A DNA stretch of 64,000 nt from Bacteroidales bacterium (GTDB lineage: Bacteria; Bacteroidota; Bacteroidia; Bacteroidales; VadinHA17), in assembly GCA_046329885.1 (NCBI GenBank), contig JAXLTU010000002.1:144520-208519 (forward strand), read 5' to 3'. Shown here piece after piece: positions 3,889-31,340 of the stretch. The translations under genes and the position numbers were made by a program. The notes below the pieces were generated by a model. The model did no database searches, was not told the DNA's origin, and saw nothing but the letters and a program-made list of their open reading frames with translations. Position 1 is the first letter of the stretch. Each line of letters begins with the position of its first letter.

Positions 3889-5519
3889 TGAATAACAGGA
3901 GAACACCGACGCACCGTATCAGGAAACTGGCCAGGAAGACTACCCCGGGGTTTCATCCCAGGAGTATAAACTACAAATGGTTCCTCCTGGCTAATGTCAT
4001 GCTCGGCACCTTCATGGCTGTTCTCGATGCCACTATAGTCAACGTGGGTCTGCCAAAGATAATGTCCTCTTTCGGGGTTGGGCTTGACAAAATCGAGTGG
4101 GTCATCACGGCCTACATGCTAGCCATGGCTGTAATGCTTCCTACCTCGGGATGGCTGGCAGATAAATACGGGTACAAGAAGATATATTTTTTCGGACTGT
4201 TCCTTTTCACCTTCGGGTCAATGCTTTGCGGGTTGTCTTCAAACGAGGATATGCTCATCATCTCCAGGATAATCCAGGGCCTTGGGGCAGGGACTATACA
4301 GCCACTTGGGATGGCGATAATAACGAGGGAATTTCCACCGAGCCAGAGAGGTGTTGCACTTGGATTCTGGGCTATATCAGCCGCGGCATCCGTTTCGTTT
4401 GGCCCGCTTATCGGTGGTTACCTCATCGACAGGTTCAGCTGGCCGCTGATATTTGACGTGAACATACCATTCGGTATCCTCGCGATGCTGTTTACCATAG
4501 TAATTCAGAGCGAGTACAAAAGCAGGAGAAAGCGCGATTTTGATCTCGTGGGTTTCATTTCCGTCACGATTTTCCTCCCGCTTACTCTTTATGTACTTTC
4601 GGAAGGGAACTCGGCAACGAATACAGCAGGATGGCACGCCCCTTATCTGCTTGCTTTCGGCGCTATTGCCCTGATTGCATTTGTAGTATTCATAACGAAC
4701 GAACTCATTGTCAAGGACCCGCTTCTTGATCTGAGATTGCTCAGGAATCATAACTTCGGGATGGCAAACCTGATAATGATTATTTTCAGTATCGGGATGT
4801 TCGGAAGCACCTTCCTGATGCCTGTCTACCTTCAGAATTCGCTTGGCTACTCGGCGCTTCAGGCTGGTTCCGTCTTTCTCCCTGTCGGAATAATACAGGG
4901 CATCATCGCCCCAATTTCAGGGCGGGTTGCTGACAAGATAAATCCCAAGATACCCATAATACTCGGTGTGCTGATTCTTGGTTTTAGTTTCTACCTGAAC
5001 TCGAAACTATCCTATCTCACCGAGATGCGCGAGATAATGATTTCCCTATACCTGAGGGGACTGGGCATGGGACTCATGTTTACAGCTCTGAGCACTATTT
5101 CACTTATCGAAATTCCACGCGAGAAGATGGCCCAGGCCTCAGCCATTTCAAATTCAATAAGGCAGCTTGGAGGCAGTCTTGGAGTTGCTCTCCTGGCCAC
5201 CCTGCTGACATCAAGAGTGCTAATGCATAGTCAGAATTTTGGAGAGGCGATAGATTCAAACTCCCAGGTCTTTCACAATACGGTTAACAACCTCAGGCTT
5301 CACGCCCAAACTGTTGCCGGCTCTTCTCCCGCCGATGCCGTGAAACAGAGCCAGGCCCTGCTCTACAGTAATCTCGGGAAGCAATCGTATATCGAGGGGA
5401 TAAATGATGATTTCCTGCTCGCCTGCCTGATCACTCTGGCCGGGGGGTTGCCAATACTGTTCCTTCACACTAAAAAACACAAAACCCAAAAACAAGTAAC
5501 AAATGAACCGGAACTTTAA
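3888..5519 (+). CDS. MFS transporter, DHA2 (EmrB/QacA-like, 14-TMS) efflux permease
   Basis: Motifs LGTFMAVLDATIVNVGLPKI and GWLADKYGYKK. It has many hydrophobic segments and a length of 543 aa. Confidence 0.9.
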   Translation: MNNRRTPTHRIRKLARKTTPGFHPRSINYKWFLLANVMLGTFMAVLDATIVNVGLPKIMSSFGVGLDKIEWVITAYMLAMAVMLPTSGWLADKYGYKKIYFFGLFLFTFGSMLCGLSSNEDMLIISRIIQGLGAGTIQPLGMAIITREFPPSQRGVALGFWAISAAASVSFGPLIGGYLIDRFSWPLIFDVNIPFGILAMLFTIVIQSEYKSRRKRDFDLVGFISVTIFLPLTLYVLSEGNSATNTAGWHAPYLLAFGAIALIAFVVFITNELIVKDPLLDLRLLRNHNFGMANLIMIIFSIGMFGSTFLMPVYLQNSLGYSALQAGSVFLPVGIIQGIIAPISGRVADKINPKIPIILGVLILGFSFYLNSKLSYLTEMREIMISLYLRGLGMGLMFTALSTISLIEIPREKMAQASAISNSIRQLGGSLGVALLATLLTSRVLMHSQNFGEAIDSNSQVFHNTVNNLRLHAQTVAGSSPADAVKQSQALLYSNLGKQSYIEGINDDFLLACLITLAGGLPILFLHTKKHKTQKQVTNEPEL

Positions 5520-6816
5520 AATATTACTCCCTGCTGCTATTTTAATGGCAGTGTCACTTGTTGCATCGAGTCAGTCACCCACACCTGATTCACTATCAAT
5601 AAAAGAGATCGTAACAACGATAGTCGCGAATCACCCGACGGTTAAAATTGCAAGGGAAGCCATTATAAATGCAGACGCCAGGATAGGTCTGGCCAGGACA
5701 GCATATTATCCTGAAGCTGACATGACGGCAAGTTATTCAAACATGGGTCCGGTGATAAAACTTACAATCCCTGACATGGGGACTTTTCAGCTCTTCCCGG
5801 AGAATAATTACGCGGCCTCGTTAAACTACAGGCAGATACTTTACGATTTTGGCAAGACAAGACAGAATATCGAAATGGAGACGGGCGGGAAACAGCTAGG
5901 CGAACAAGCACTTGAACAGGTCAAACAGAAACTTTCATTATACGCGGTTAACACCTGCTACACGATTTTATTCCTACAGGCAGCAATTAAGATCAAGGAT
6001 GAACAACTCGCAACTCTCAACGAACACCTGAGGCACGTCGAAATGATGATGTCAACCGGTTCCGCCACGGAATACCAGGTCCTGTCGACAAGGGTTAAGA
6101 TATCTGGTGTTGAAAGTCAGAAAGTTGACCTCCAGGCAGGACTGACAGCACAACAGGCGGCACTAAACTCATTGCTTGGAAACGGGACGTCACGTCCCCC
6201 GGCAATCAGGCAGGACATATCGGCAAACAAACCATTGGTTGCCACCGATTCACTTCTCTCTTATGCTCTTGACAACCGCGATGAGATGAAAATGAACAGG
6301 CAGAGAGCCACCCTGGCAAGCATGAGGTATGAACTCGTCAGGTTAAGCAATAAACCCATTATCAGTCTTCAGGCATCAGCAGGCGGGAAGAATGGATACG
6401 TACCCGAACTTGGTAAGATCAGGCCTAATTACGTTGTTGGTCTGGGTTTGAGAGTCCCCATTTACGATGGGTTGAGAACAAAGTATAACCTCGCCCAGGT
6501 TAAGTCGTCAATCAATACCATTTCAGAGGAAACTGAATCGACAAGAAGGGCTATCACTAATGAATTAATAGAAGCAGAAGCCTATCTCGAGGCAGCAGGT
6601 AAAAAGGTCAGCCAGTTCGAGCTCCAGCTTGCCCAGGCTACTAAAGCTAATGAACTGGCTAAAATAAGTTTCGCATCTGGCATAATCACGAATCTCGATC
6701 TTCTTGATTCGAACACTGCATTATCGGAGAGCAGGTTGCTTCTGCTGAAAGCCAGGATTGATTATGCCGCGAGCATCTACAAGCTCGAAGCGGCTATGGG
6801 AAAAAGGATTTATTAA
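5503..6816 (+). CDS. TolC-family outer membrane efflux protein
   Basis: Signal peptide, two-repeat coiled-coil/beta architecture, and a 17-nt overlap with the MFS gene. Confidence 0.85.
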   Translation: MNRNFKILLPAAILMAVSLVASSQSPTPDSLSIKEIVTTIVANHPTVKIAREAIINADARIGLARTAYYPEADMTASYSNMGPVIKLTIPDMGTFQLFPENNYAASLNYRQILYDFGKTRQNIEMETGGKQLGEQALEQVKQKLSLYAVNTCYTILFLQAAIKIKDEQLATLNEHLRHVEMMMSTGSATEYQVLSTRVKISGVESQKVDLQAGLTAQQAALNSLLGNGTSRPPAIRQDISANKPLVATDSLLSYALDNRDEMKMNRQRATLASMRYELVRLSNKPIISLQASAGGKNGYVPELGKIRPNYVVGLGLRVPIYDGLRTKYNLAQVKSSINTISEETESTRRAITNELIEAEAYLEAAGKKVSQFELQLAQATKANELAKISFASGIITNLDLLDSNTALSESRLLLLKARIDYAASIYKLEAAMGKRIY

Positions 6817-7002
6817 AACTACTGCAGAGTTTAGATGAGATCAGGTGAAAGAGGGGTGCTTTCCGACAGATTCCTTTTACATAATTATATGATTCTCTTG
6901 ACTTTTATAATTTTCTTTAATAAATTTGATCTTTAGAATAGAAATATTTAGTCTGCAATACTAATTTTTATTCAGGAATTACATTTTCTAAACTTCGTCG
7001 CT

Positions 7003-7215
7003 ATGTCTACACAAAATGGTGGTGTAAAGACAAAGCAACAGATGGCTGACGAGTATGGGGTCTGCAGGAAGACTTTCAACAAGCTTCTTCAGAGGAAGAA
7101 CATCAAGCTTGACAAGGGACTTATTTACCCCAAGGAACAGATGCAGATCTACAGCGAGCTGGGTGAACCAGGGCATTTCAGGAAGTTCCCCGTAATTCCT
7201 AAAAATTCCCTTTAA
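7003..7215 (+). CDS. Small HTH-like protein (resembles DUF4248-type proteins)
   Basis: 70 aa. The tail YPKEQMQIYSELGEPG resembles the conserved F-T-P-x-Q-V...LGEP tail I recall for DUF4248. It is flanked by AT-rich spacers. Confidence 0.4.
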   Translation: MSTQNGGVKTKQQMADEYGVCRKTFNKLLQRKNIKLDKGLIYPKEQMQIYSELGEPGHFRKFPVIPKNSL

Positions 7216-7312
7216 TACCCGTTTTTTCGCGTTCTACTTCAGCTAAGCTGCTGAACTTTGTTGTAAGATAAGCAACCCCGCTTGACTTTCTTGCATTAAC
7301 ACTATACCATAA

Positions 7313-8428
7313 ATGACACAGAAAGAGGAAATAATTGAAAAGCTCCTTCACGATCCACTGAATTTCAGCAATAGTCTGCTTCAAAGGTTAATAAGCCTTG
7401 ACCTTACATTTGACGACCTGCGCGAGTGCATCAGGCGGATTTATGATCTTTCTGAAAGACAGTTACGTGAGACCTCGAATGCGAACATGGGGATGATGGG
7501 CAAATTAAACAGGTACAGCACCGGCAGGAGAATTAAAAAATTTAACAGGAAAACAAACCGCGTTAAAGAAAACGACGGTCGTGTAATCATCTATGCTGAA
7601 GGAGATTCATGGTTCCAGTTCCCGGTGTTTATAACAGATATAATTGACTGGATTAACAAGGTAGACAAGTATCACATTTACAGTGAGGCATACGGGGGCG
7701 ACTGGATAACAAATATAATATATGAAAGCCAGTACGTGTCTTCATTATCAGTTTATAAACCTGCATATTTTCTTATCAGCGGGGGTGGCAATGACCTGGT
7801 TGGCAACAATCGTCTTGCAATAATGATAAGCAAGACACCTGTTCAGCCAAAATACGATTCAGCCAATCCCCTTGATGACGCCTCGCTCACTGCTGAACAG
7901 GTGAGCATGATAATGATGGCCCAGGAACATATCACGAAAGAGTTTTATTCATTCATCTGGGCAATCAAGGCACAGTATCTCCTCATGTTCAGCAGGATCT
8001 ACAGGACTGGCAGCACCCAGAAAGACATAATCTGTATCACCCAGGGATATGATTACGCGATACCCGGACTGCATCAGACGAATTTTCTTTTTCATCCCGT
8101 TCAGGTAATTATAAACAAAGCTCTCGATAATGGTTGCTGGCTGAAAAGGCCCATGCTCATCAGGGGCATAACTGACCCGATACTGCAGAGGGCGATAGTA
8201 ATGACCCTCATCTACGAGTTCAACAACATGTTCATAGATCTGGCATTGAATTTCGGATTTGACAGGATCTATCATGTCGATTGCCGCGGACTGGCGACAA
8301 AACCATCGGACTGGTATGACGAATTGCATTACAGGAGCAGTAATTACAAGAAAGTGGCGAATGCTTACAGGATCATCATTGATTCAGGAGGAAAATGCCC
8401 GAGGATAATCAGGGTTTCTGAAATTTAG
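7313..8428 (+). CDS. SGNH/GDSL-type hydrolase with a ~90-aa helical N-terminal extension; no signal peptide
   Basis: Block I is IIYAEGDSWF, block III is ISGGGNDLVGN, and block V is DWYDELHY (DxxH). Confidence 0.7.
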   Translation: MTQKEEIIEKLLHDPLNFSNSLLQRLISLDLTFDDLRECIRRIYDLSERQLRETSNANMGMMGKLNRYSTGRRIKKFNRKTNRVKENDGRVIIYAEGDSWFQFPVFITDIIDWINKVDKYHIYSEAYGGDWITNIIYESQYVSSLSVYKPAYFLISGGGNDLVGNNRLAIMISKTPVQPKYDSANPLDDASLTAEQVSMIMMAQEHITKEFYSFIWAIKAQYLLMFSRIYRTGSTQKDIICITQGYDYAIPGLHQTNFLFHPVQVIINKALDNGCWLKRPMLIRGITDPILQRAIVMTLIYEFNNMFIDLALNFGFDRIYHVDCRGLATKPSDWYDELHYRSSNYKKVANAYRIIIDSGGKCPRIIRVSEI

Positions 8429-8705
8429 CTTCAGTTTTTTAATAAATAATTAAAATTAAAGACATGTTTTATCTGGTAATTAAGATTATGAATCTGGAAA
8501 GATGTATTGCCAAATCTGACAAAAACATTTTCAAAGACAATGATAAATTCAATTGTAACCAATCATTAGCATTCAATAAGACGCGATTAGTCTGTCGATT
8601 GAAAATAAGATGCATAGAAAATCCGTCCAATTTAATTGACGCTATTGTTTATAGCGATTAATATACTGCTTTTCAAATAATCCCGGATCAATTCCAATCA
8701 AGACA

Positions 8706-10013
8706 ATGAAGAAGAAGATACTTTTCCTTTTATCAGTTACGATACTGGCATTATTTGCCGGTTGCTCCACTCTTGTTCGTTACAGGGTTTTGTACGGAAC
8801 TTCAAAAAATGACAACCTTGTTGATGTCAACGTATTCCGGTTCAGACTGTCTGATAATACATCTGAAAAACAGTCAAAAACACTTTGGGATTTAAACGCT
8901 GAAGCACAGGCGCAGCTTCTAAAAATATATAATTCCCGGTATCCGGGGAACAAGAGCTTTAATGAAGCCCTCGAGAGAAGATACCTTGAATCTGCTGACA
9001 ATCTGCCTCAGAATGATTTCACGAAGAGGGATCTCAGAATGGTATTTTCCATAAGCAAAAACAGGGGTGAATACAGGGACACGTCAGGTAAAACTGTAAG
9101 AACTACACCGGCCGACAGGATTGAATATCTGAAGGTTTCTATAAAAGCAAGTGATCCCCTGTTCAGGTTTACCGGATGGAACTTTTTCACGACCGAATAT
9201 GCCACAATAGATATCGCCAACATATCATCTTCAAGGTCATTCGATCTAACGGGAGAATTATCAGCATCTAAAACCGTCAAGGATGAGAGCGGAAAGAACA
9301 TAAGTCTAAGCCCAACAGTTTCTTCAGGGATGAAAGTGGACCAAACATTGAAGTACCGTTATCTGAAGCTAAACGGACAGCTTAATGACAGCACTATTTC
9401 AATCGAGGAAGAAGGCACTCGTGAAAATGACCTCACGGGAAATATAGTTGCAGATGTATCAATTGAATTTAACAAATTCCCTGTTATGCTCGCGACTGTA
9501 AAAGGATTAAGGGATAGCACGGGGAAACCGGCAAAGGCTGAAAATGTTGAAGCGGATTTCGATTATGTCTTGATTCCCGCGGTTAGCAGCATCAACGACA
9601 AGATTGAAGCTGAGCTAAGCATCGATTATGTTTACAGAAAAGTATTTGGCGGCAAAAAATCATACCCTGAATGGAACGATTGGGTCAGGTACTATACAGG
9701 ACACGTATCTAAGAAAATAACTATACTAAACGCCGCTGATTTTGTACCCGGGTTTTACGGGCTTGGGGTTAACCAGGGTGTTGACAAGTACTTCCTTTCT
9801 GCAAGTGACTCTAATCTCGAGGGAGTGCCCTTGTTTTTCAGAACTTACAAGGAAGCCCGTGATTTTCTGGATTGGTTCAGATCATCATTTGCCGGTGATT
9901 TAAAAAGGAAACCATTACGGGTGGGAAATTACGATCTTATTATTACAGGCAGGGACACCACGGGAGTATCCCGGTTCTGGGACAATATAAATATACTTTC
10001 CGTTTTCTGGTAG
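8706..10013 (+). CDS. Lipoprotein of unknown function
   Basis: Lipobox LALFAGCS after a typical signal peptide. It is a 435-aa ORF with normal composition and no motif I recognise. Confidence 0.6.
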   Translation: MKKKILFLLSVTILALFAGCSTLVRYRVLYGTSKNDNLVDVNVFRFRLSDNTSEKQSKTLWDLNAEAQAQLLKIYNSRYPGNKSFNEALERRYLESADNLPQNDFTKRDLRMVFSISKNRGEYRDTSGKTVRTTPADRIEYLKVSIKASDPLFRFTGWNFFTTEYATIDIANISSSRSFDLTGELSASKTVKDESGKNISLSPTVSSGMKVDQTLKYRYLKLNGQLNDSTISIEEEGTRENDLTGNIVADVSIEFNKFPVMLATVKGLRDSTGKPAKAENVEADFDYVLIPAVSSINDKIEAELSIDYVYRKVFGGKKSYPEWNDWVRYYTGHVSKKITILNAADFVPGFYGLGVNQGVDKYFLSASDSNLEGVPLFFRTYKEARDFLDWFRSSFAGDLKRKPLRVGNYDLIITGRDTTGVSRFWDNINILSVFW

Positions 10014-10212
10014 ATCAGGCTGCTTGCTAATTCCGGAAGTGTCGCGATTATTCCATTTTATTCCGCTTTTTGCCTCTAATTAACATGCCATTATCCCTGG
10101 CTATTAAGACCTTGCATCTTGTAATTCAAATTAGGGAAAGGGGGTGTAATCAGTTAGAAAAGCCTTAAGCATTACCGGAATATTAGTTTATTAATCATTA
10201 ACAATTAAATCA

Positions 10213-11136
10213 ATGGAAGAAACAACAAAATTACCAGCAATGGGGTGGATTCCTGATTTACCTGACATAAGGGACTTCAGCCCGGATACCGCGGAAATTG
10301 ACCTCAAGTTGGCTGACCTGGGAAGGAAAGAATCTATCAATTCCATGTTAATGAGGCTTAAAACAGAAAAACCCAGAAAGGCACCTATTCCCTTACCCGC
10401 CTCAAAAGATCTCAGACCATGGTTCTCTCCTGTCGAAAACCAGTTAACCCTAGGCTCTTGCACAGCAAATGCCGGTGTTGGTCTCGTGGAGTATTTCGAG
10501 AGACGTGCCTACGGGAAACACATTGATGCTTCGCGGATCTTTCTTTACAAAGTGACCAGGGACCTCTTAAAGTGGACCGGAGACAGGGGAGCATATTTAA
10601 GGACCACGATGAAAGCCCTGACTCTCTTTGGTGTTCCTCCCGAGGAATATTGCCCGTACGTTGTAGCCGATTTTGACATTGAACCATCGGCCTTTCTTTA
10701 TGCCTTCGCGCAAAACTACCAGGCCATAACTTATTACAGGCTTGACCCACCGGGTTCTGTCGACAAAAATGCACTATTGCTCCGGATTAAAACTCACCTG
10801 TCGATGAACCTTCCTTCAATGTTCGGTTTCACCGTTTACACCTCTATCAACCAGGCCAATCAAACCGGCAAAATCCCGTTCCCATTCACTGGAGACAGAG
10901 TTGCGGGTGGACACGCCATAGTTGCAGCTGGTTATGACGACAATGTAAGGATTAAGCATTCAGGTACTGGTGCCCCAGAGTACAAGGGCGCTCTGTTAAT
11001 AAGGAATTCATGGGGAACAGGGTGGGGTGATAACGGTTACGGGTGGTTACCATACGAATACGTACTCAAAGGACTTGCAACTGACTGGTGGTCTCTTTTA
11101 AAAAGCGAATGGATTGACACGGGGAATTTTAACTAG
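10213..11136 (+). CDS. Papain-like cysteine peptidase (MEROPS C1 family); no signal peptide
   Basis: Catalytic motifs NQLTLGSCTANA (Gln/Cys), GGHAIVAAGYDD (His) and IRNSWGTGWGDNGYGWLPYEY (Asn/Trp). The N-terminal GWIPDLPDIRDF is typical of bacterial C1 homologues. Confidence 0.85.
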   Translation: MEETTKLPAMGWIPDLPDIRDFSPDTAEIDLKLADLGRKESINSMLMRLKTEKPRKAPIPLPASKDLRPWFSPVENQLTLGSCTANAGVGLVEYFERRAYGKHIDASRIFLYKVTRDLLKWTGDRGAYLRTTMKALTLFGVPPEEYCPYVVADFDIEPSAFLYAFAQNYQAITYYRLDPPGSVDKNALLLRIKTHLSMNLPSMFGFTVYTSINQANQTGKIPFPFTGDRVAGGHAIVAAGYDDNVRIKHSGTGAPEYKGALLIRNSWGTGWGDNGYGWLPYEYVLKGLATDWWSLLKSEWIDTGNFN

Positions 11137-11176
11137 CCCGTGATCCTTCAACCGCGAGCCATCAGAATAGGCTAAC

Positions 11177-11213
11177 GAGGCCGGCATCAGATACCGGCCT
11201 CATTTTTGTATTT
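11177..11213 (+). terminator. Rho-independent terminator after the C1 peptidase gene
   Basis: GAGGCCGG (11177-84), a 9-nt loop, CCGGCCTC (11194-201), then ATTTTTGTATTT. Confidence 0.6.
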
Positions 11214-11283
11214 GGAAAGAATGCCTGGTCTTGATAAATATCACTACCACGCGTGTAAAATCCTGAAGGATTTTCAGTTTACA

Positions 11284-11952
11284 CTATTTAAGCTTGTGGT
11301 AGATACCTTTCCATATATCTTTCCCTCTTTTATTCTTACCAGCCTCAACGTAACCAGACTTCTGAAGTAATAAAAGTATTTCATTCACTTTATCCTGATC
11401 ATTAATGGTATCTTCTGATATTCCTGGCACTGTACGATAACTATAAGTTGTATTTAATACTGCATTAGCCACTTTTTGAATTGAAATTGCATCAATATTA
11501 GTTGAGGTCTTCGCGATTACATCCTGAACTACTTCATCAATATCGTCAATCTCGACATTCTGCATCTCAACATCTTCCACGGCTTTCTTTGCCTCTTCAA
11601 CCTTTTTATCGATTGTTTCCGTCTTTTTCTCTATATTATTAATCTTGTCGTACAAATCCTCGAGAAACCTCTTTGAAAAATAAGAGGCCAGTACGCATAA
11701 ACCGGCTATAATCAGGTAGTTTTTGACGGGCATCGTATCAGTTATTGTCAAGAGATCATTCGGTAAAACCTGGAGAAATAAAGGCACTGTTATCGATGCA
11801 CACAGACCCATGAGTATGCATTTAATCTTCAGCATCCTGGTTTCACCAATTGGAATCTCGGGGTTCCAGATAAGATAGTAGTTTGTAATTCCTCCCAGCA
11901 AACCAGCCAGGAGAATTATCAGGATGATAAGAACTACGGGCAATGGAGACAT
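11284..11952 (-). CDS. 3-TM membrane protein with acidic coiled coil and a small C-terminal winged-helix-like domain
   Basis: Three N-terminal hydrophobic helices, a central E/K/D-rich heptad region, and the C-terminal segment KVNEILLLLQKSGYVEAGKNKRGKDIW. Confidence 0.55.
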   Translation of the reverse strand: MSPLPVVLIILIILLAGLLGGITNYYLIWNPEIPIGETRMLKIKCILMGLCASITVPLFLQVLPNDLLTITDTMPVKNYLIIAGLCVLASYFSKRFLEDLYDKINNIEKKTETIDKKVEEAKKAVEDVEMQNVEIDDIDEVVQDVIAKTSTNIDAISIQKVANAVLNTTYSYRTVPGISEDTINDQDKVNEILLLLQKSGYVEAGKNKRGKDIWKGIYHKLK

Positions 11953-12030
11953 GGTTTTAGTTTTTGATTTCTGACTGAAGAATAATTATGCAAATATCCG
12001 GGTGCCAAAATAATGTTCAAAGAATATGAC

Positions 12031-12088
12031 AGGAAATGGAGGGAAAAAAAGGGAAATATCGGGCAAAAACGGGAACATGGTTTTTCCC
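12031..12088. repeat. Five tandem 10-bp phased repeats (GGGAAA-N4) plus an inverted TTTTTCCC, in a divergent promoter region
   Basis: AGGAAATGGA GGGAAAAAAA GGGAAATATC GGGCAAAAAC GGGAACATGG at 12031-12080, then TTTTTCCC at 12081-88, which is the reverse complement of GGGAAAAA at 12041-48. Confidence 0.6.
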
Positions 12089-12146
12089 TGATCATTGTTG
12101 AGTAAGGATTTACGAATTGTGCCGGTACACGGTGTTAGTTGCTCTG

Positions 12147-12178
12147 ATTGACAAGCGCGTGGCGAAAGCTTAACTTTG
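12147..12178 (+). promoter_or_regulatory. Candidate Bacteroidota-type promoter for the EEP nuclease gene
   Basis: TAACTTTG at 12171-78 fits the TAnnTTTG -7 consensus and lies 38 nt before the ATG. A weak aTTG lies about 21 nt upstream of it. Confidence 0.3.
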
Positions 12179-12215
12179 TAATATACTGACAAGTAAAATT
12201 TAAAAAACATAAATT

Positions 12216-13271
12216 ATGGCAGGAAAGATCAAGATTGCAACGTTTAACTGTGAAAACCTTTTTAACAGGATAACTATATTCCGGGAAAGTGAGCAGAAAG
12301 CTCACGAACTACTTGAAGCCGTAGACAAACTCAATGCCGAACTAAAGAAACCCGTCTTCGACCAGGCCGAGATAGCCAGGCTCAAAACCATACTCAAAGG
12401 TTTTGCATCGATTAATGACATTAAGAATAAACACACTACAGCGGGTATAGGTGCGAGAGAATGGTTTGGGTGGATTGAGTATAACCAGCAACCTGCAGAA
12501 GATGCTTCAATTCAGAATCTGGCCAGGGTAATAGCTGAAACAGATGCTGACATCATATGTCTGATCGAGGTTGAAAACAGGACTGTTTTGCAGAAATTCC
12601 ATGATGACATACTCTACAAGCATTACTTGAAACCCTTCGGGAAAAGAAAATATGAACATATTATGCTGATAGATGCCAACGACCCCAGGGGAATTGATGT
12701 AAGCCTCATGTCCAGATTACCAATTATTTCAATGAAAAGCTACCTAGATGACACGACTTCTTACCTTGGAAAGATCACCAAGACTTTTTCCCGGGATTGT
12801 CTGCATGTGACGCTTGACATTGGTGCGGATAGACCATTGAATCTTTTCATCAATCATTTAAAATCGCAGGGATACTCCGGAGAAGGAGATCCTGGAGGAA
12901 ATATCCGGAGAGAGGGTCAGGCTAAAAGGGTTGCAGAAATAATTAATACTCTTGATCTCCAAAATGATCTTGTCATCGTTGCCGGTGATTTGAATTGCGA
13001 TCCATCAAATAATTCCCTGGCGCCTCTCCTGAACCGATCCGACTTGTTCAACCTGAATATGAAACTTCCACCGGATGAAAGAGGGACTTACCTTACAGGA
13101 AAGAAACAATTGGATTATCTGATTGTTACAAAACCACTTGAAAAAAGAATGACCCAACTGAAAGTCATAAAGAGAGGCATTTTTAAATACCCTGATCACT
13201 ACCCAACTGTAACGGATAAAGTATCTCAGGCCTCCGATCATGCCGCTGTTGTAGCCGAGTTTGATTTTTAA
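12216..13271 (+). CDS. Endonuclease/exonuclease/phosphatase (EEP) family protein, NucH/ExeM-like nuclease fold; no signal peptide
   Basis: Motifs KIATFNCENLF, DADIICLIEVEN, INHLKS, VAGDLNCDP and SDHAAVVAEFDF. Confidence 0.85.
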   Translation: MAGKIKIATFNCENLFNRITIFRESEQKAHELLEAVDKLNAELKKPVFDQAEIARLKTILKGFASINDIKNKHTTAGIGAREWFGWIEYNQQPAEDASIQNLARVIAETDADIICLIEVENRTVLQKFHDDILYKHYLKPFGKRKYEHIMLIDANDPRGIDVSLMSRLPIISMKSYLDDTTSYLGKITKTFSRDCLHVTLDIGADRPLNLFINHLKSQGYSGEGDPGGNIRREGQAKRVAEIINTLDLQNDLVIVAGDLNCDPSNNSLAPLLNRSDLFNLNMKLPPDERGTYLTGKKQLDYLIVTKPLEKRMTQLKVIKRGIFKYPDHYPTVTDKVSQASDHAAVVAEFDF

Positions 13272-13287
13272 TCTTAAATCTTGCAAT

Positions 13288-13800
13288 ATGGACTCCAAAT
13301 TAATCGTGATTCTGATCGTTTGTGTAATCCTTGGTACTGGTATTGTAGTAACAGGGTGCATTAAAGTCCTGGGCAAAAACGGGTCACTTGATATGAAAGC
13401 CGCGCTCTTTATCCTGGTGGGATTTGTTTTCGTTTGTCTACCTGTTGCAACTTCAATAGGTATTGAATGGGGCGATTTTAAACTTTTCGTGAATACAACC
13501 TCTAAACAGGTTGAGAAAATGCAGAAAACCCTTGACTCTCTATCAGTTGTTAATAGCGACCTCAGTCAACAACTAGCCAGGTTAAACACTGACCTAAATA
13601 ACTACAGGCAGATGGCAAGTGACCCTCATGTATCACCCATTCAACGAGCAAGGGCCCTACAGGAAATCTCGTCAAGTTTAGTTGAGATTGATACAAAGGT
13701 CAACAACCTGGGAGCCTCAATCAGGTCTACAGTAAATAAAAACAATGACCTTCAAAAGGAAACCGTCAAATTCAAATCAAAAAGCTGGTTTAGGAATTAG
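13288..13800 (+). CDS. 2-TM membrane protein with C-terminal coiled coil
   Basis: The ATG at 13288 is preferred because the track start at 13261 is a TTG. Two hydrophobic helices are followed by a heptad-rich region (LDSLSVVNSDLSQQLARLNTDLNNYRQ). It starts 16 nt after the EEP gene stop. Confidence 0.55.
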   Translation: MDSKLIVILIVCVILGTGIVVTGCIKVLGKNGSLDMKAALFILVGFVFVCLPVATSIGIEWGDFKLFVNTTSKQVEKMQKTLDSLSVVNSDLSQQLARLNTDLNNYRQMASDPHVSPIQRARALQEISSSLVEIDTKVNNLGASIRSTVNKNNDLQKETVKFKSKSWFRN

Positions 13801-13955
13801 ACAGGGTAGCGCTGATTGTAAAGGGTATAATCATTTTATTTGATCGAGGTTTTTCCTTCCTGATCTACCTGGAAAACTCCTCGTTTAATGAACAAAAAAC
13901 AAAATACTTGGTTTATATTTTGATAACCAAAATATTAACCTTTACATTTCCCCTT

Positions 13956-14555
13956 ATGAAAAAGAAACTTTCTATTCTTTTCCTGACCGTGTTGACAGTA
14001 ATGCTTTCTTTTCCGGTAATCGCCCAGGAGCATGCCATTACATGGTCAGTCGTTGCAGGGCTTAGCAAATCCAGCATCGTTGGTGAAAGTGAAAGCTGGA
14101 AGGACCCGCTTGGAGGTCAGATCGGCGTTTATGCTTCACTCTCCAATTTCAGCGAATCGATGAGTCTCAAACTCGAGGCCAATCTCTCCATGCAGGGTGC
14201 CAAATGGGAGGAGAACATTGATGGCTATATTTCTAAAGGAAGAACGAACCTGCTTTACCTTAATATGCCTCTTGTTGTCCGTTACAGGCATAGCAAAGGA
14301 TATTTCGCGGAAGTTGGCCTTCAGCCAGGATTTCTCCTCGCCGCCAAGGACAAGTACGACGGTGGATCTGATAATTACATGGACTTCATGAAAAAGTTTG
14401 ATTTCAGCGTTCCTGTCGGAATCGGTTATGAATTCAGGAAAAAATACGCCGTGGGTATAAGAGTCATACCCGGACTCACCAACGTCAATTCTGATGGTTC
14501 AGCGAAAGACAGGAACTTTGTCGCTGCACTCAGGTTTGCTTACACCATCGAGTAA
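13956..14555 (+). CDS. Small outer-membrane beta-barrel protein (porin-family / OMP_b-brl_2-like)
   Basis: The ATG at 13956 gives the signal peptide MKKKLSILFLTVLTVMLSFPVIAQ. The sequence has an alternating beta-strand pattern and the terminal RFAYTIE. Confidence 0.7.
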   Translation: MKKKLSILFLTVLTVMLSFPVIAQEHAITWSVVAGLSKSSIVGESESWKDPLGGQIGVYASLSNFSESMSLKLEANLSMQGAKWEENIDGYISKGRTNLLYLNMPLVVRYRHSKGYFAEVGLQPGFLLAAKDKYDGGSDNYMDFMKKFDFSVPVGIGYEFRKKYAVGIRVIPGLTNVNSDGSAKDRNFVAALRFAYTIE

Positions 14556-14684
14556 AGAAGCCCTGGTATACTTGTTCACCAGTCAGTCTGATTCAAGTGG
14601 ATGTCTGATTAATGCTGTGACCGGTGAAACATATTTTTACCAGTTGAATAGCTTTTAAGGTAAAACAGGATAACAAAATATATT

Positions 14685-15134
14685 ATGAAAATTGAAAAAA
14701 GCATAGTAATAAACAGGGACTCAATGGACCTTTACAATTATCTCAGGATCACCAGGAACCAGGATAATTTTTCGACCTGGAACATGGCTGATCCCGCGAA
14801 GAAGACAACTTCAAAAGGAACGGATGGCACTGTCGGATTCGTTTATAGCTGGGACAGCACTGACAAGAATGTTGGAGCAGGTGAGCAGGAACTGACTGGC
14901 CTTACCGAGGGCAAAAGAATTGATTATGATATAAGATTCTTCAGACCAATGAAGAACGTTGCCAAGGCAAGTTTCATCATTTCCGGGGAAAGTGGAAAGA
15001 ACTCAAACGTCACTTGGTCCTTCGATAGTCCAAGTAAATTCCCATTCTCCCTGCTCACCCCAATTTTTAAAAAGATGCTTGGTAAAGACATGGCTAAAAG
15101 CCTGGATAACCTGAAATCCCTCATGGAAAAATAA
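14685..15134 (+). CDS. SRPBCC-superfamily (START/polyketide-cyclase-like) protein
   Basis: 149 aa. The size and pattern (MKIEKSIVINRD...YNYL...W) are typical of SRPBCC family proteins. Confidence 0.65.
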   Translation: MKIEKSIVINRDSMDLYNYLRITRNQDNFSTWNMADPAKKTTSKGTDGTVGFVYSWDSTDKNVGAGEQELTGLTEGKRIDYDIRFFRPMKNVAKASFIISGESGKNSNVTWSFDSPSKFPFSLLTPIFKKMLGKDMAKSLDNLKSLMEK

Positions 15135-15144
15135 GGTATCCTGC

Positions 15145-15208
15145 AAACAGACAGTGAAGCAGCTTTTAACCCTTTATGCTGCTTCACTATCATTTTTACT
15201 GTCTGTTT
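15145..15208 (+). terminator. Long interrupted hairpin after the SRPBCC gene (probable terminator)
   Basis: AAACAGACAGTGAAGCAGC (15145-63), a 14-nt loop, GCTGCTTCACT (15178-88), the bulge ATCATTTTT, then ACTGTCTGTTT (15198-208). Both arm segments are perfect complements. Confidence 0.55.
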
Positions 15209-15255
15209 TCTGCTTTCTCCTTTTTCCTTTTTACTTTTTCCTTTCTCCTTTCTCC
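15193..15255 (+). repeat. Heptanucleotide-phased pyrimidine array (9 units)
   Basis: TTTTTAC TGTCTGT TTTCTGC TTTCTCC TTTTTCC TTTTTAC TTTTTCC TTTCTCC TTTCTCC. Confidence 0.7.
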
Positions 15256-15354
15256 TACCAGATACCTGAAATTCTACCGTTTTGGCCAGAATTGATTACC
15301 TCCGGTGAAGGAAATATATAGGAAATTAAAGCCGGCACTGCATCACCAGGAGAA

Positions 15355-18300
15355 TCAGTAACTCCTGATCATTTTCACCAGGTCTGCCCTCCTGATTGGT
15401 TTCGAGATATAATCGTTGCACCCAGCCTGCAGGGCTATCTCTTTATCCCTGCCAAAGGCATAAGCAGTCTGCGCGAGAATGGGAATTCCCGTATTGAATT
15501 CCCTGATCCGCTTTGTTGCTTCCAGTCCTGACATTCCTGGCAGCTTGATATCCATCAATATCAAATCGACCCCGCCAACCTCTTTCATGAATTTCACGGC
15601 CTCGCTCCCGTCTGTAATATGTAATACCTTGTGATTTTCGGATGTGAGAATTTTCTCGAGGACCATGTAACTTGCCTTGTCATCTTCAACCACCAGAATA
15701 GTCTTTCCCTTTGCCTGCATATTCTGAGCCGGGGAGGAGCTTTCCTTTTTGGTCACTATTTCCTGTGAACCAAGATATGGAAGGGAGAAGTAGAAAGTAC
15801 TTCCTTTACCATCTTCTGAATCGACCCAGATTTTCCCACCCAGCATCTCCACGTAAGCTTTCACTATCGCGAGACCGAGACCCGAACCTTCATGCAGCCT
15901 GTTAGGAGTGATATCGCCCTGGATGAAACGTTCGAATATTTTATCCTTGTATTCAGAGGATATCCCGGGGCCCGTGTCTGAAACAAAGAATAGCAGCGTG
16001 TCACCAGCCTTCCTGTTACCAAACTCAATATATCCTGTAGATGTAAATTTAACGGCGTTCTTAAGTAGGTTTGACAATATGCTTTCGAGTTTGCTCCGGT
16101 CTGTCTGCATTATTGCCTCCTGACCCTCGAGATGGTCAGCCAGCATGAGTCCAATGCCCTTCGATTCAGCCTGTTGTCTGAAGAAAGAATGATAATACCT
16201 CATGAGGTTTTCTGTATCAACCTCCGATATGTAAGTATTCAGTTCACCAGCTTCAATCTTCGAGATTTCAATTATGTCATTCAGGGTATTGAGTAACCTG
16301 TTTCCGCTCTGCGTGACAATCCCGATATATTCCGTTTTATTTTCTTCCGAAAGATCTGGTTCTTTAAGCAGTTCCAGGAAACCTATGATGCCATTCATGG
16401 GGGTCCTGATCTCGTGACTCATGTTGGTCAGGAACGCTGTCTTGAGTCTGTCGCTCTCCTCTGCTTTCTCCTTGGCTATTACAAGTTTCTTCTCATTATC
16501 AATTCTTTCAAGCACATTCACGAGAGTTTGTGCGTAAACCTGCAAAAGCTGGCTTTCCACATCTGTATAGTCGTGGTATTCCAACACGGAGTCAAAGCCG
16601 ACGAATCCTATACACTCTCCACCCTTGAGGAATGGGATTGTAAGGAAGCTCTTCACATCCTGCATCTCGAGCAAGGCTCTCAGGGTACTGTCAGCAATTG
16701 TTTTTACATTATCATTTTTAACAGTCTCTCCCTTCTTGTGATGCTCGACCCAGGAAAGGAAACTATCCAGTGATGCTTTCTGGAATTTGTCTATTTGTGC
16801 CGATATTCCTGGCCTGCACCATTCGATAGTATTTGTCGCGGTCATACCGACGAAATCATATTCAAAAACGTAAGCCCTGTCAGCGCCGACGAACTCTCCA
16901 ATCCTTGCCAGCGAATCTTGGATTGCCGGTCTTATATCAGCCACGGGCAGATTGATAAAACCTGAAGACAATTCCACGAGTATTTTTCTTGCTTTGGACT
17001 GGTACCTCAGCTGATTCTGCGCGATAGTCTTCTCGGTCACGTCCTTCCCATATAAAGCGGCACCGACAACGCCTCCATCAACTATGATGGGATTCATTGC
17101 AACCTCTATGTAAATAATCGTGTCTCCCAGAACGAGCTTGTCCTCGAACAGGAAATGCTCATTCCTGAAAGCCCTGTCGTACCTGTCTTTCCAGATAACC
17201 CTGAGGTTTTCAGGCAGCGCATCGAGGATGTTGAGTCCCACCTTCAATTCCACACCGAAAGTAGCCAGGAATGCCCGGACGAAAACTTCATTCACGTATT
17301 CAATCTCGTAAGACGTATTTACAGACCATATGTTCTCGAGAGTGTTTTCAATTATTGCTTTTAAATTGGCCTCACTTTTAAGAAGCTTTTTCTCAGCGCT
17401 TCGTTTCCCGGTCACATCTCTGGCCGTACCTACTGTTCCGATTATGTTACCATTATCATCTTCCAGAGGGGTCTTGACAACATCGAGGTACAGAAACTTC
17501 CCTTTAATGTTTCCATACTCGTCAAACTGGCAGGTAACACCTTTCCTGATCGTTTCCTGATCCGAGTCAATGCAATTAGCCCCGAAAGTATGCCATTCAG
17601 GGTCATCGGAGTGTGACTCAATTTGTCTCTTTGTGAAAAACAAATCCGTTTTACCTATCGGTTCCGATGTGTCAACAGCACCGAGAAGGTTACTGCATAC
17701 CGAGTTATTTGCAAAGAGATACCTCCCGTTTATATCTTTTGCCCAAACCATATCAGGTATAATATCAGCCATGTTCCTGAATAGAGCCTGCAGGTTCTTG
17801 TACGATTGCTCACTTTCCCTGATCCTGATCTCGTATTCCTTGCGGTCTGTTATGTCCTGAAAGGTACCAACAAGCCGCTGGCATGTCCCGTTCACGAAAA
17901 CCGGCTTAGCTATATTCCTGACGTGATGTTCCCTCCCGTCAAAGGCAATAACGATAAACTCCTGATCAAATGAGACTCCATTGAGCCTGGCGTTTTCAAC
18001 ACATTCATAAATCCTGTCCCGGCTGTCGCCTTCCTTGTAATACGTGAGAAGATCCTCGATCCTCGGGACAAAATCAAGCGGGACACTCATTATCTTCTTC
18101 GTGACAACTGACCAGTTTACAGTGCCCTTAACGAAATCAACCTCCCATGCTCCGACCTTTGCCATCATTCCGGTTTCCAGAAGAAGATCGTTTGCCCTCA
18201 CCAGTTCTTCTTCAGCCTTTTGTCGTTCAGATATATCCCTCGACAGACCCTGAATTCCGATGGGTTTACCCTCACTATCCCGGATAAAGGTCATCATGTT

Positions 18301-20214
18301 TTCAAGGATTTTTACTGAACCGTCTTTGTGATAGTAACCTACCTTCATCGTTGTCGTTCTGGCTTGATCTTCCTTCCCCTCCAGAGCTAACTGGTCCACT
18401 AGAAGTGCTGCCGCCTTAACGAGATACTCTGGAGCTATTGTCTGTTCAGGGCTTTTCCCGAGTATCTCTTCAGCAGTGAATCCGAGTATCTTTTGAACGG
18501 AGGGGGTTACCCATGTTGTCTGCAAATTAAGGTCACAGGTCCAGAGTATGTCATACATCCTTTCCGTCAGCCCCCTGTAGTTATTTTCACTTTCCCGGAG
18601 TTTCTTCTCTGCCAGTTTGAGCCTTGTAATATCAGTACCTACAATCAGGTAAAAGACTTTGCCCACGGGCATAACCAGGTCAATTGACACGAGCAGTACT
18701 ACCTGTTCACCATTTTTCTTGACTGTCGAGAACTCGCGGTTTCTGAAAGATCCTTCCCTGGCTATATTCTCCCTGACTTCTTCCTTCAGATCAGGTTCGA
18801 TCTTGAAAATCTCATCAATTGTTTTTCCGATAACTTCCTGATCCGTGAAACCAAGTGTTTCACGGAACGAGTTATTGACCTCAACCAGTTGCTCGGTATC
18901 AACTGTACAGAGGCCCATAAGATCCGGGCTCACGTTAAATATCCTGTGAAATTTCTCCTCCGAGAGTTTAAGGAGTGAAATATCCTTGCTAACCCCGAAG
19001 AAAACATTTTTACCATCCCACTCCCCTTTAATAACATAGGTTTCCACGGGAATTAGCTCGCCGGTTTTTGTAATCAATGGAATATGGCAAGAGGATTCTG
19101 TACCTGAAACCACTTCTATCACTCTCTTCTCAGCTTCTTGCCTTAAAGCTTCCGGATGGACAATTGAAATGTGTTGCCCAAGTAATTCTGAAGCTTTGTA
19201 TCCCAACCTGTTGATAACAGTTTCATTAATTTCAATTATCCTGCCTTTTGTATCAAGCACCCAGTGAAAGTCGATATCCGAATGAAAGAAATTCTTGAGG
19301 TTTGTCTCGCTTTTTCTCCTTTTTGTTTCCGTATCGTTTCTTTTAATTGCAACTCCTACCAGATTGGCGAAAACAGCAACGGATGCATTGTTTCTCATCT
19401 CCTTCCCTTTGCCGAAAAACAGGATGAAGTCGCCCATTATCTGGGAGTCTGCACTCATTTCAACAACGTATACTGAGCCTGTATTTGTAACAGCGGAGAT
19501 AGCGGTACTAAGTTTTTCAGGGATCGATCCCTCGGCCAGATCTGTTATACAGCCAAACCTCACCACGTGATGATGTCTGATCTGGTTAAGCCTGGCCTCG
19601 GAAACATCCCACTCCCTGTTTAAAAGAGAGTACCCTATGAGCCGGTAAACAGCCTTTACAATTCCAGGTTTGCCATAAACGGCAACATTCCTGAATTTTT
19701 TACTATCCTCCGAGTAAAGGTTAAAAACTCCAAAATCCGCACCGGCAAGCTTGCAAATCTCGCAAGTCAGGTTCCTGTAATCAAGAGGGTATCCTCCTTC
19801 ATCAAGAAGCATCCTGCTTAAGGATATCACCTCGTCACTTTCGCTACCAGTTCTCGACTGAATCTCTTCCAGAAGTATTGAAAAACAGTTTTTATTATCA
19901 GGAATGGTCCTCAGCAAGTAGCTTCTACCCGTGATGGCAGAGTACCTCTCCACGGAAACGACCTTATTTGATAATAAAGCTTTCTCGTATAGCTCGATAT
20001 TATCAAGGCCCGACTGACCGTCGGAAGAAATCAGCTCAAGCAGATCCTTCCCTTCAAGCTTATCTGTAGGTATACCGGTAATATCCGTGAAAGACCTGTT
20101 TACCTCTATTATCGAAAATACTCTTTCTGAAGATTTTACACCTTCTTTCATTGCAATCCTGGCATAGCCCGTGTTGGATTGCATTAATACGGATTTATAC
20201 TGACCTTCATCCAT
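15355..20214 (-). CDS. Multi-PAS/GAF hybrid sensor histidine kinase with C-terminal receiver domain
   Basis: 1619 aa with multiple PAS-like modules and GAF-like segments. HisKA is [23 protein letters not shown]. The HATPase has the [10 protein letters not shown]-type G-box. The receiver is ILVVEDD...[13 protein letters not shown]...KP. Confidence 0.9.
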   Translation of the reverse strand: [1619 protein letters not shown]

Positions 20215-27652: not shown

Positions 27653-27917
27653 TTAATAATTATATTGATGAAGATAAAAATAATTAAATCCCCGGTTATA
27701 ATTGCATGCACCGGGATGCTATTGTTTATGCTGCAACGGTTAATCAGCTGTTCTTACAAGGGTATACCTGATTCCCTGGTATTGCTTATTCACCAGGTGC
27801 AACAACCTGCCTCCTCTTACCGCCACGAACCAAGCTTCAAAAACATTGGTCTTCCCCGGCTATTCCCAGGCTGATTCCCGGAAACCACCAGATAAAGATG
27901 AGGCAATAAGCAGAATT

Positions 27918-29315: not shown

Positions 29316-29523
29316 CAAACATAAAGTTAGTAATTAAATAGAATCAAGTTTATGTTTTATTATTGTTTGTTGCTGAATTTTAGATTTTCGCAAAAATCGA
29401 GGAACACCCGTGCAAATTGACACTCCTGTCTGCACGAAGTATCATATTCCAATCAGATTCGTGTAGAGTGATTGGAAATCATTAATGGTCTATCAGGTGT
29501 TCCCTAATGTTCATACCTGACAC

Positions 29524-30111: not shown

Positions 30112-30295
30112 AAAACTAGCTTTAGAAAGCTAAATGTAATCAATTATATTTATTTCAGAACCTGTTCAAATCGACTGATTGCCAATGAGAATTATCCACT
30201 AAAGAACGGGCCTGATCCAATTGGTATCTTATAGTAATTATCATTTTGCAGGCAGCAGTCCAAAGTTCTATCTTTGCAAAAATGACCAGTTTCTA

Positions 30296-30487
30296 ATGTC
30301 TTACAAAACCATCAGGAATAAAGTACCTCCAGCGGGTTTTTCATGCAAGAAGACCTCTTACCATACAAGGGAAGAAGCAGAAGAGATGATAAAACACATC
30401 AGGGAAACCAGGATTACAAAGGAGATTAGATCTTATCAATGCCCCGTCTGTGGTTTGTGGCATCTTACGAGCAGCAGAAAGGGATAA
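30296..30487 (+). CDS. Small zinc-ribbon-like protein
   Basis: ATG at 30296, because the track start at 30221 is a TTG. The sequence includes C at FSCKK and YQCPVCGLWHLTS. Confidence 0.4.
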   Translation: MSYKTIRNKVPPAGFSCKKTSYHTREEAEEMIKHIRETRITKEIRSYQCPVCGLWHLTSSRKG

Positions 30488-30593
30488 AAGCTTATCCCTT
30501 TAATTACTGCTGTCGCGAAAAAAACTTTCTAAATAATCCAAAGGAATAACATATACAAGGTCCCATTGGATTTCAATAGCATACTATACCTTT

Positions 30594-31229: not shown

Positions 31230-31340
31230 AGTTTTTGCTTGTATAACAATCAAGCGGCTGCAAGGTTTGCCAATGGTGTAAAAACAAGAACAAAGTCAGG
31301 AGGAATTTGTTAGTTTTGAAATGTTTCAAAATGCTATGCT

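Follow-up and report, generated by a model that had tools for sequence, protein, structure and literature searches.

The 64,000-nucleotide stretch analyzed here, referred to as the window throughout, comes from contig JAXLTU010000002.1 of the metagenome-assembled genome of a Bacteroidales bacterium (GenBank assembly GCA_046329885.1, positions 144,520 to 208,519 of the forward strand). At positions 7003 to 13800, it carries a block that an earlier description, made from the letters alone (the sequence-only reading), had presented as seven genes forming a candidate conflict- or defence-type island. All seven open reading frames (ORFs) are present. Inspection of the ORFs together with tblastn adds orf65, so that the block holds 8 genes rather than 7 (g1 to g7 plus orf65), as follows:

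7003-7215, plus strand: g1 (HTH70), small helix-turn-helix (HTH) protein of 70 amino acids (aa); ORF with a weak HTH_29 match
7313-8428, plus strand: g2, putative SGNH-type hydrolase with a helical N-terminal region of ~90 aa and no signal peptide; from motifs
8464-8661, plus strand: orf65, Cys-rich protein of 65 aa inside the “spacer” 8429-8705; from tblastn and alignment
8706-10013, plus strand: g3 (lipo435), lipoprotein of 435 aa; from its lipobox, LFAGC20
10213-11136, plus strand: g4, papain-like C1 peptidase, xylellain-like, no signal peptide; from Pfam, PDB, and motifs
11284-11952, minus strand: g5, YLATT region of three transmembrane (TM) segments, coiled coil, and C-terminal winged helix; PF20303
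11953-12215, no strand: divergent g5/g6 intergenic region with a -7-like box for g6 (TAACTTTG) and TTCCC repeats
12216-13271, plus strand: g6, phosphodiesterase of the EEP superfamily, no signal peptide; from Pfam and motifs
13261-13800 (start at TTG 13261 or ATG 13288), plus strand: g7, ORF with two TM segments and a coiled coil, overlapping or abutting the end of g6

The block is flanked by an efflux operon on one side (TolC, 5503-6816) and an outer-membrane protein (OMP) gene on the other (OMP/SRPBCC/hybrid-kinase flank, 13908-20214), and the remainder of the window is of housekeeping type (glycosidases, peptidases, transporters, and two-component genes). The view that these are accessory genes without metabolic logic is supported, and the three hydrolases g2, g4, and g6 indeed have no hydrophobic N-terminus, i.e., no signal peptide. 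No known anti-phage system was found in the block or its vicinity, in agreement with the earlier statement that no named system is recognizable. PADLOC-DB v2.0 returned coiled-coil noise alone for nine block and flank proteins (best E=3.5e-4) and eight weak generic ATPase/kinase-type matches, with no system, for the 39 other ORFs of the window, and NCBIfam and PHROGs searches of the block gave nothing past generic or weak matches.

Gene order and co-occurrence in related genomes

Co-occurrence was read by tblastn and ORF clustering in 64 species-level genome loci retrieved through the lipoprotein, 19 metagenome loci retrieved through the YLATT protein, and single contigs for close or distant homologues (labels L001-L100 denote fetched homologue loci; P numbers denote homologue proteins). 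Across the 64 lipoprotein loci, orf65 is the sole companion of the lipoprotein gene; the SGNH gene was found in 1 and the C1, YLATT, EEP, and g7 genes in 0. In the 19 YLATT loci, neither a further window gene nor a conserved partner was found. A conserved seven-gene unit was not found across diverged genomes, and gene order is common to the closest relatives only, and in part:

L070: orf65, lipoprotein, and C1' genes, then YLATT on the opposite strand and EEP (YLATT 70% and EEP 64% identical to the window)
L072/L073/L071: HTH70, SGNH, orf65, lipoprotein, C1'; no YLATT
L002: HTH70, orf65, lipoprotein, M10, EEP remnant, YLATT
JGI contig (3.3 kb): 70-aa gene (possibly HTH70), then YLATT on the opposite strand and EEP; no orf65-lipoprotein cassette
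L095: HTH70, EEP, patatin, and further genes

Since the flank 5' of HTH70 is unlike in the window, L002, and L072, and since the relatives keep partial orders, these results argue for the shuffling of a pool of modules rather than for one machine. We favor, with modest confidence, the reading that independent modules have come to lie side by side in this lineage, within a chromosomal neighbourhood that varies, and that they do not make up a seven-gene machine. The block is best described as a mosaic of four: a protease-coupled cassette (orf65 and lipo435), a solo YLATT-winged-helix gene (g5), a solo EEP gene with the orphan g7, and a small HTH gene (g1).

The contrary proposal is that the seven genes form one novel anti-phage or abortive-infection system, in which three cytoplasmic hydrolase effectors are controlled by membrane and coiled-coil proteins. 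It draws on the lack of metabolic logic, the hydrolases without signal peptides, the gene order kept in part in L070 and L072, and the residence of the g5 family in defence islands (see below). However, there is no co-occurrence past close relatives, the EEP gene has decayed beside an intact YLATT gene in L002-L004, the JGI contig has YLATT and EEP without the cassette, and L071 has the cassette and C1 without YLATT. In addition, g7 was found in no other locus, and PADLOC gave no matches. The one-system proposal is thus largely refuted by the co-occurrence data, and we consider it very unlikely. Where it had grouped seven genes into one defence-type block, orf65 is the sole steady partner of lipo435, and the YLATT and EEP genes are scattered singly; with lipo435 in a conserved housekeeping-like context in ~35 species, and EEP and YLATT solo, this is largely the scatter of orthologues that the sequence-only reading had itself named as counting against it. 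Consequently, listing the block as a seven-gene defence system is not warranted. Partial combinations of block genes do recur in related genomes with different flanks, and the description of the block as a conflict-flavoured accessory neighbourhood, neither a known defence system nor demonstrably acquired, is partly supported.

As for acquisition, the three spacers named earlier (6817-7002, 8429-8705, and 10014-10212) are AT-rich as claimed, with a guanine-plus-cytosine (GC) content of 0.28-0.36, but 8429-8705 is no spacer, as it encodes the conserved 65-aa orf65 (GC 0.29). AT-rich “spacers” in Bacteroidales can therefore hide small conserved genes. Nor does AT-richness mark foreign DNA here: the GC content of the block is 0.414 against 0.437±0.016 for windows of equal size (-1.4 standard deviations), and its tetranucleotide distance of 0.127 is average (0.1245±0.018). 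The composition of the block is native. An origin as the remnant of an integrated mobile element or a horizontally acquired genomic island would fit the AT-rich spacers, the unlike flanks 5' of HTH70, the EEP gene beside a TrwC relaxase in Fibrisoma, and the YLATT gene beside a DDE transposase in L098. Against this origin, no integrase or transposase Pfam family occurs among the block proteins, in line with the sequence-only reading, no tRNA lies in the 64-kb window, and the search for flanking repeats marking island borders gave just short, chance-level repeats. Together with the unremarkable composition, this makes the mobile-element origin extremely improbable. Elsewhere in the window, positions 27000-34000 have the lowest GC content (~0.40) and the highest tetranucleotide deviation (0.15-0.18 versus a mean of 0.125), and thus deviate more in composition than the block.

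The orf65-lipo435 cassette and its neighbouring protease

The identification of g3 as a lipoprotein stands. Its family is nameless and unannotated, is restricted to Bacteroidales, and comprises at least 190 clusters at 90% identity, all of ~435 aa. In 56 of 68 lipoprotein loci (tblastn), orf65 is encoded directly 5' of the lipoprotein gene and in the same orientation, and the 48 orf65 homologues that we aligned have a fixed length and conserved Cys residues. The two genes form a nameless cassette without a Pfam model, present across many Bacteroidales species; together with the YLATT variant described below, this unannotated cassette is what is new at the locus. Copy number and integrity vary: L059 (9287-9968) has two orf65 copies in tandem, L006 and L009 are two complete copies of a C14 protease-orf65-lipoprotein set in a single genome (CAWBLL01), and a split C14 gene with a truncated lipoprotein gene in L064 (8774-10715) represents a decayed cassette.

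Pfam searches of 36 lipo435 family members returned noise alone and no domain, and a PDB sequence and profile search with lipo435 gave no match. Its AlphaFold2 (AF2) model (pLDDT 71.6) is rich in beta structure, and confidence is low for the segment of residues 166-220. The top 50 Foldseek matches of this model are nearly all staphylococcal alpha-hemolysin/leukocidin structures, joined by a Vibrio pro-hemolysin, and they are weak but uniform (TM-scores 0.14-0.32, best E=5.6e-4). In addition, the family alignment shows alternating polarity and hydrophobicity on both arms of a hairpin at 166-220. Neither a TM-score of at least 0.5 nor a profile match, either of which we would take to indicate a leukocidin/alpha-hemolysin-type beta-pore-forming toxin, was obtained, and lipo435, unlike these toxins, is lipid-anchored. 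Its likeness to a beta-pore-former may thus serve as a lead, not as a classification. Pairwise identities between loci show that lipo435 diverges faster than its neighbour genes: between the window and L072, it is 47% identical (orf65 54%, SGNH 63%, HTH70 68%), between the window and L070, 48% (YLATT 70%, EEP 64%), and between L070 and L071, 54% (C1 80%).

In a neighbour-joining tree, the lipoproteins fall into three clades that coincide with three gene contexts. In clade A (~35 species), the order is PhzF, a monoacylglycerol-lipase-like alpha/beta hydrolase (PDB 6eic, E=9e-19), orf65, the lipoprotein, an oppositely oriented aldo-keto reductase, and an SGNH esterase with a twin-arginine (TAT) signal, with a FabK-like gene and a major facilitator superfamily (MFS) transporter also in the vicinity. 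In clade C (7 species), orf65 and the lipoprotein are preceded by a membrane protein of 129 aa. Clade B consists of the window and ~19 further loci, and here a protease always adjoins the cassette; no such protease was found beside the cassette in clades A or C.

In 17 clade-B loci, this protease is a caspase-like C14 enzyme with intact SGHG/DSCHSG motifs, encoded directly 5' of orf65. Each clade-B locus without C14 has another signal-less protease directly 3' of the lipoprotein gene, and the slot is filled as follows:

Window: C1 peptidase type B (g4)
L070/L071: C1 peptidase type A, 80% identical to each other and 26% to g4
L002: signal-less PG_binding_1+M10 protein
L011: myroilysin-like metzincin (PDB 5gwd, E=4e-41)

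The papain-like assignment of g4 holds firmly. The protein matches Peptidase_C1 (E=9e-10, 39.5 bits against a cut-off of 20.7) and has the catalytic residues Gln78, Cys83, His234, and Asn265, the last three within the motifs NQLTLGSC, GGHA, and NSWG, which together place it in peptidase family C1. Its best solved relative is xylellain (PDB 3OIS), which aligns over residues 54-295 (E=7e-28) with the catalytic Gln, Cys, His, and Asn kept; the two differ in setting, as g4 is encoded beside orf65 and lipo435.

In total, the neighbouring protease has undergone at least four non-orthologous replacements within clade B. A pattern of non-orthologous replacement usually marks a real functional partnership. 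For clade B, we take the observations on the slot and on lipoprotein divergence to support, to a moderate degree, a functional partnership between protease and cassette. An SGNH gene of the g2 type also stands 5' of the cassette in three genomes (L072/L073, 63% identity; L008, 57% identity).

Two further proteins lie next to the cassette. A 147-aa small polytopic membrane protein without a Pfam match (c24; L012, 11325-11768) is encoded directly 3' of the cassette in 8 clade-B loci, and the 129-aa protein of clade C, likewise small and polytopic (c31; L047, 90-479), is encoded directly 5' of it in 7 loci. These positions are those that YLATT takes near the cassette in the closest relatives of the window.

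Two interpretations of the cassette compete with ours. The first is a looser conflict module with orf65 and lipo435 as the core, a small polytopic membrane partner (YLATT, c24, or c31), and hydrolases as swappable death effectors. By analogy with gasdermin-protease pairs, the fast-evolving lipoprotein would act as a sensor, or would kill by pore formation once the protease licenses it. In bacteria, 43 of 50 gasdermin genes adjoin proteases (10.1101/2021.06.07.447441), and in both cases a putative membrane-active protein stands beside a protease of varying family, of which caspase-like C14 is the commonest. This precedent is joined by the five non-orthologous proteases in the slot, the SGNH gene 5' of the cassette in three genomes, the small membrane protein adjoining it in clades B and C, the order YLATT, C14, secreted protein in L098-L100, the faster divergence of lipo435, and its Foldseek matches to beta-pore-forming toxins with the alternating hydrophobic pattern at 166-220. 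However, lipo435 is exported through Sec and its lipobox, its top 50 Foldseek matches include no gasdermin, and orf65 has no counterpart in the gasdermin systems, so that protease adjacency is the sole common feature and we do not count the cassette among them. The low TM-scores, the lack of a Pfam or PDB sequence match, the ~35 species with the cassette amid housekeeping-type genes and no protease, the lack of a PADLOC match, the small number of independent events, and the separation of an exported lipoprotein from apparently cytoplasmic proteases all count against the looser module, which we regard as unlikely.

The second is envelope or lipid housekeeping, in which the cassette and an esterase or protease would serve lipoprotein or membrane-lipid turnover, with YLATT, EEP, and HTH70 as unrelated neighbours. 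The clade A setting (lipase-like hydrolase, SGNH esterase, PhzF, aldo-keto reductase, FabK-like gene, and MFS transporter), the efflux operon and OMP gene flanking the block, and its native composition are consistent with this interpretation. Yet the swapping of five protease families and the fast divergence of the lipoprotein would be unusual for housekeeping, and the YLATT neighbourhoods elsewhere are defence islands. We find the housekeeping interpretation as doubtful as the looser module.

In the modular reading that we prefer, orf65 and lipo435 would be a two-gene envelope cassette found throughout Bacteroidales. These two genes would be the constant part and the hydrolase an exchangeable catalytic partner, here g4 and sometimes also a g2-type SGNH esterase on the 5' side, which would act on a cassette product by processing, activation, or turnover.

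The YLATT-winged-helix protein g5 and its neighbourhoods

The outline of g5 given by the sequence-only reading (three TM segments, a coiled coil, and a winged-HTH-like part) is borne out and can now be tied to a family. The protein matches the Pfam model YLATT (PF20303, “YEATS-Like-Associating Three TM”) over residues 6-113 with 89.3 bits (E=1.7e-25), well above the gathering threshold of the hidden Markov model (26.7), and thus belongs to this family. Its AF2 model, built with 28 homologues, has helices at residues 4-28, 35-62, 76-91, and 93-131 and a winged HTH at 138-216. The top Foldseek matches of the C-terminal domain are all winged-helix DNA-binding structures (Fur/PerR, TFE, ArsR, and MarR), superposing at 2.1-2.9 A across 80-90 columns. 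As the charge distribution fits an N-out/C-in topology, the winged helix is predicted to be cytoplasmic.

What is known of the YLATT family here comes from its Pfam name; no published description of YLATT, pYEATS, or prokaryotic YEATS proteins was found in the literature searched. Proteins that combine YLATT and pYEATS (PF20305), such as P0066, have the overall layout of g5: a 3-TM module at the N-terminus, then a linker, then a soluble domain at the C-terminus. In g5 and its subfamily, however, this domain is a winged helix, and no pYEATS was found in g5 or its neighbours, so that the association stated by the family name does not apply. As such, g5 is a YLATT variant in which a winged helix replaces pYEATS, with relatives in classical defence islands, and it is absent from PADLOC.

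The defence islands emerged when 86 ORFs within 5 kb of g5 homologues, from 18 loci, were searched with PADLOC. At E<=1e-5, 143 models were matched, and the window's own 39 other ORFs, in which no known defence gene was found around g5, served as the sole background control. Among the matched models are HEC-05 (6e-190), PDC-M48B (9e-149), a type IV restriction enzyme (mREase_IV, 1e-93), ZorA2, ZorB2, ZorE2, IetA, LmuA, AriA, and a DRT reverse transcriptase. Pfam families beside the YLATT homologues include TIR, OLD-like AAA_15+TOPRIM, Mrr, and a MotA-like protein; SLFN/AlbA_2 genes are neighbours in L001/L005 and a PIN toxin-antitoxin pair in L002. The homologues of g5 therefore stand among genes of Zorya II, Mrr-type IV restriction enzymes, Lamassu, Ietis, PARIS/OLD-like systems, and TIR proteins, whereas the neighbours of g5 in the window include no known defence gene. 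Altogether, these results support the g5 family as resident in defence islands, and the conflict reading of the block is supported for g5 only, by association; the other genes gave no PADLOC system.

Two groups of YLATT loci deserve description. In L077 (1058-4841), three genes directly follow a YLATT homologue (45% identity), and the first of them has a MotA/ExbB Pfam match. ZorA2, ZorB2, and ZorE2 each scored for one neighbour, presumably at this locus, which hints that YLATT adjoins a Zorya type II set here. In L098 (116-5114; also L099 and L100), a DDE transposase gene is followed by YLATT (40% identity), a C14 protease, and a secreted protein of 639 aa whose C-terminus is OMP-like. Near this set lies a T5orf172/MUG113 gene, and the trio of YLATT, C14, and secreted protein occurs on 13 contigs.

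A quite different role for g5 would be secretion. In a holin-dependent cassette resembling type 10 secretion, g5 and/or g7 would be holin- or spanin-like and would release the signal-less esterase, protease, and nuclease. Secretion of signal-less proteins through holins has precedent (PMC9527704, PMC10109510). The interspersion of signal-less hydrolases with small membrane and coiled-coil proteins, the signal-less PG_binding_1+M10 protein of L002, and a weak PHROG match of g5 to an Rz-like spanin (E=0.003) point in this direction. Against it, the window has no peptidoglycan hydrolase, a winged helix is atypical for holins, phage databases gave no match (tblastn with g5 found nothing in phage genomes), and the hydrolases do not accompany g5 or g7 in other loci. 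The holin proposal is, in our judgment, most improbable.

Gene content, domain identities, co-occurrence, and the defence neighbourhoods of g5 homologues were observed, and from them we infer every functional step of the modular reading. For g5, this reading proposes a stand-alone membrane protein whose cytoplasmic winged helix, in the place held by pYEATS in classical YLATT proteins, would be tethered through the coiled coil to the YLATT 3-TM module. Because its relatives live in defence islands, g5 may be a sensor (winged helix) plus membrane effector (YLATT) of the abortive-infection type, a layout that resembles the TM effectors of known systems. As it is absent from PADLOC, g5 is a cheap candidate for phage-challenge testing. 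The third module would comprise g6, a solo EEP phosphodiesterase of wide distribution that has a promoter of its own, together with the orphan g7.

Several observations weigh against this partition. For g5, the case for a defence role comes solely from association, and no PADLOC model matches the protein. The protease association is confined to one clade, with approximately five independent events, and a cytoplasmic protease could process an exported lipoprotein directly only through a topologically awkward route. The partial synteny of six genes in the closest relatives could mean functional linkage instead of shared descent. Finally, YLATT adjoins the cassette in four configurations (the window, L070, L002, and L001/L005), and in L098-L100 a YLATT gene (40% identity) stands directly before C14 and the secreted protein; because of these arrangements, YLATT and the protease-linked cassette may not be fully independent.

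In the most far-reaching reading, orf65, lipo435, an interchangeable signal-less hydrolase, and a small polytopic membrane partner (e.g., YLATT) would be an undescribed envelope conflict or cell-death module of Bacteroidales. Here, a fast-evolving, beta-pore-former-like lipoprotein would be licensed by the adjoining protease (C14, two C1 types, M10, or M12), and the module would be joined in the window to a DNA-sensing YLATT-winged-helix protein, a new single-gene defence candidate. We offer this as a speculation that is quite unlikely to hold.

The EEP phosphodiesterase, g7, and the 5' genes

The sequence-only reading had called g6 a NucH/ExeM-like EEP nuclease. The EEP part stands, with matches to Exo_endo_phos_3 (E=9e-18, 64.8 bits against a cut-off of 27) and Exo_endo_phos (E=9e-15, 55.4 bits against 24.5) and with intact motifs (FNCEN10, LIEVE116, GDLN257, and SDH340), and g6 is probably a nuclease. 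Membership of ExeM/NucH is argued against by a score of 50 bits against a 300-bit cut-off: g6 shares the EEP catalytic core and motifs with these extracellular nucleases but has no signal peptide and none of their extra domains. A PDB sequence search with g6 gave nothing useful. The family to which g6 belongs is compact (~350 aa) and broad, with at least 1704 homologues at ~50% identity in Bacteroidota, Acidobacteria, Chloroflexi, and archaea; tblastn found 9 distant, uninformative matches in plasmids. EEP contexts vary, from FliD/FliS through the TrwC relaxase of Fibrisoma to a cluster of patatin, DUF2971, and FRG genes. The last of these, in L095, fits a defence-island setting for g6 homologues in part.

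In L002-L004, the EEP gene is cut to a 98-aa remnant beside an intact YLATT gene, which argues against either depending on the other. A functional g5-g6 pair was considered and not adopted, given that the adjacency is confined to close relatives and that L002 retains an EEP remnant.

In the divergent g5/g6 intergenic region, the TAACTTTG box (12171-12178) lies 38 nt before g6 and is kept in the alignment with L070. Also kept there are the TTCCC repeats, which have a ~10-bp period and lie 60-110 nt 5' of the g5 start; in L070 (349-666), they appear as three AATTATTCCC units. The repeats could, on weak grounds, be an operator at which the winged helix or HTH70 acts. A further ORF in this region (orf74, 11986-12210, minus strand) was rejected as a gene, as tblastn found no match to it in any locus, L070 included; one JGI contig does have a called ORF of 66 aa at the corresponding place.

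The description of g7 as a protein with two TM segments and a coiled coil agrees with our results, which place the segments at residues 14-32 and 48-66; its profile matches are weak and of coiled-coil type alone. No g7 homologue was found by tblastn in ~100 fetched loci, and JGI 3300075153 has a putative 34-aa partial ORF overlapping the EEP end.

For g2, the claimed SGNH identity is upheld by motifs and not by the Pfam score. Blocks I, II, III, and V (GDSW97, AYGGD126, GGGND157, and DELH336) are invariant across 3 homologues, but the match to Lipase_GDSL is below the cut-off (16.3 against 23.6 bits, E=0.012), so that g2 is best regarded as a putative SGNH hydrolase on the strength of these motifs. 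Its relatives P0336, P0443, and P0446 pass Lipase_GDSL_2. The g2 family numbers 1439 clusters at 50% identity and includes fusions to Trypsin_2, DUF4062, DUF7379, and an alpha/beta hydrolase. Many members keep the helical N-terminus of ~90 aa, for which there is no Pfam model, and PDB sequence searches with g2 and with a g2 profile gave no match.

The earlier assignment of g1 as DUF4248-like was not borne out. The C-terminal “LGEP” resembles DUF4248; the Pfam search did not detect DUF4248 in g1 and returned, at E<=0.1, a sole match to HTH_29 (E=0.009). A -7-like box (TAAATTTG, 6921-6928) of the Bacteroidetes type TAnnTTTG lies 75 nt before g1, a weak observation. Homologues of g1 (61-68% identity) adjoin orf65/lipoprotein, SGNH, or EEP genes in L002, L007, L011, L072, and L095. 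In relatives, this small HTH gene thus turns up repeatedly at the margin of the accessory gene pool. In L095 (6068-15053; Bacteroidales SMAG_U14716), the HTH70 homologue (61%) is followed by an EEP homologue (66%), a 331-aa gene without known identity, patatin, two unknowns, DUF2971, an LCAT-type lipase, and an FRG-domain gene, which together make up a hydrolase-rich accessory cluster.

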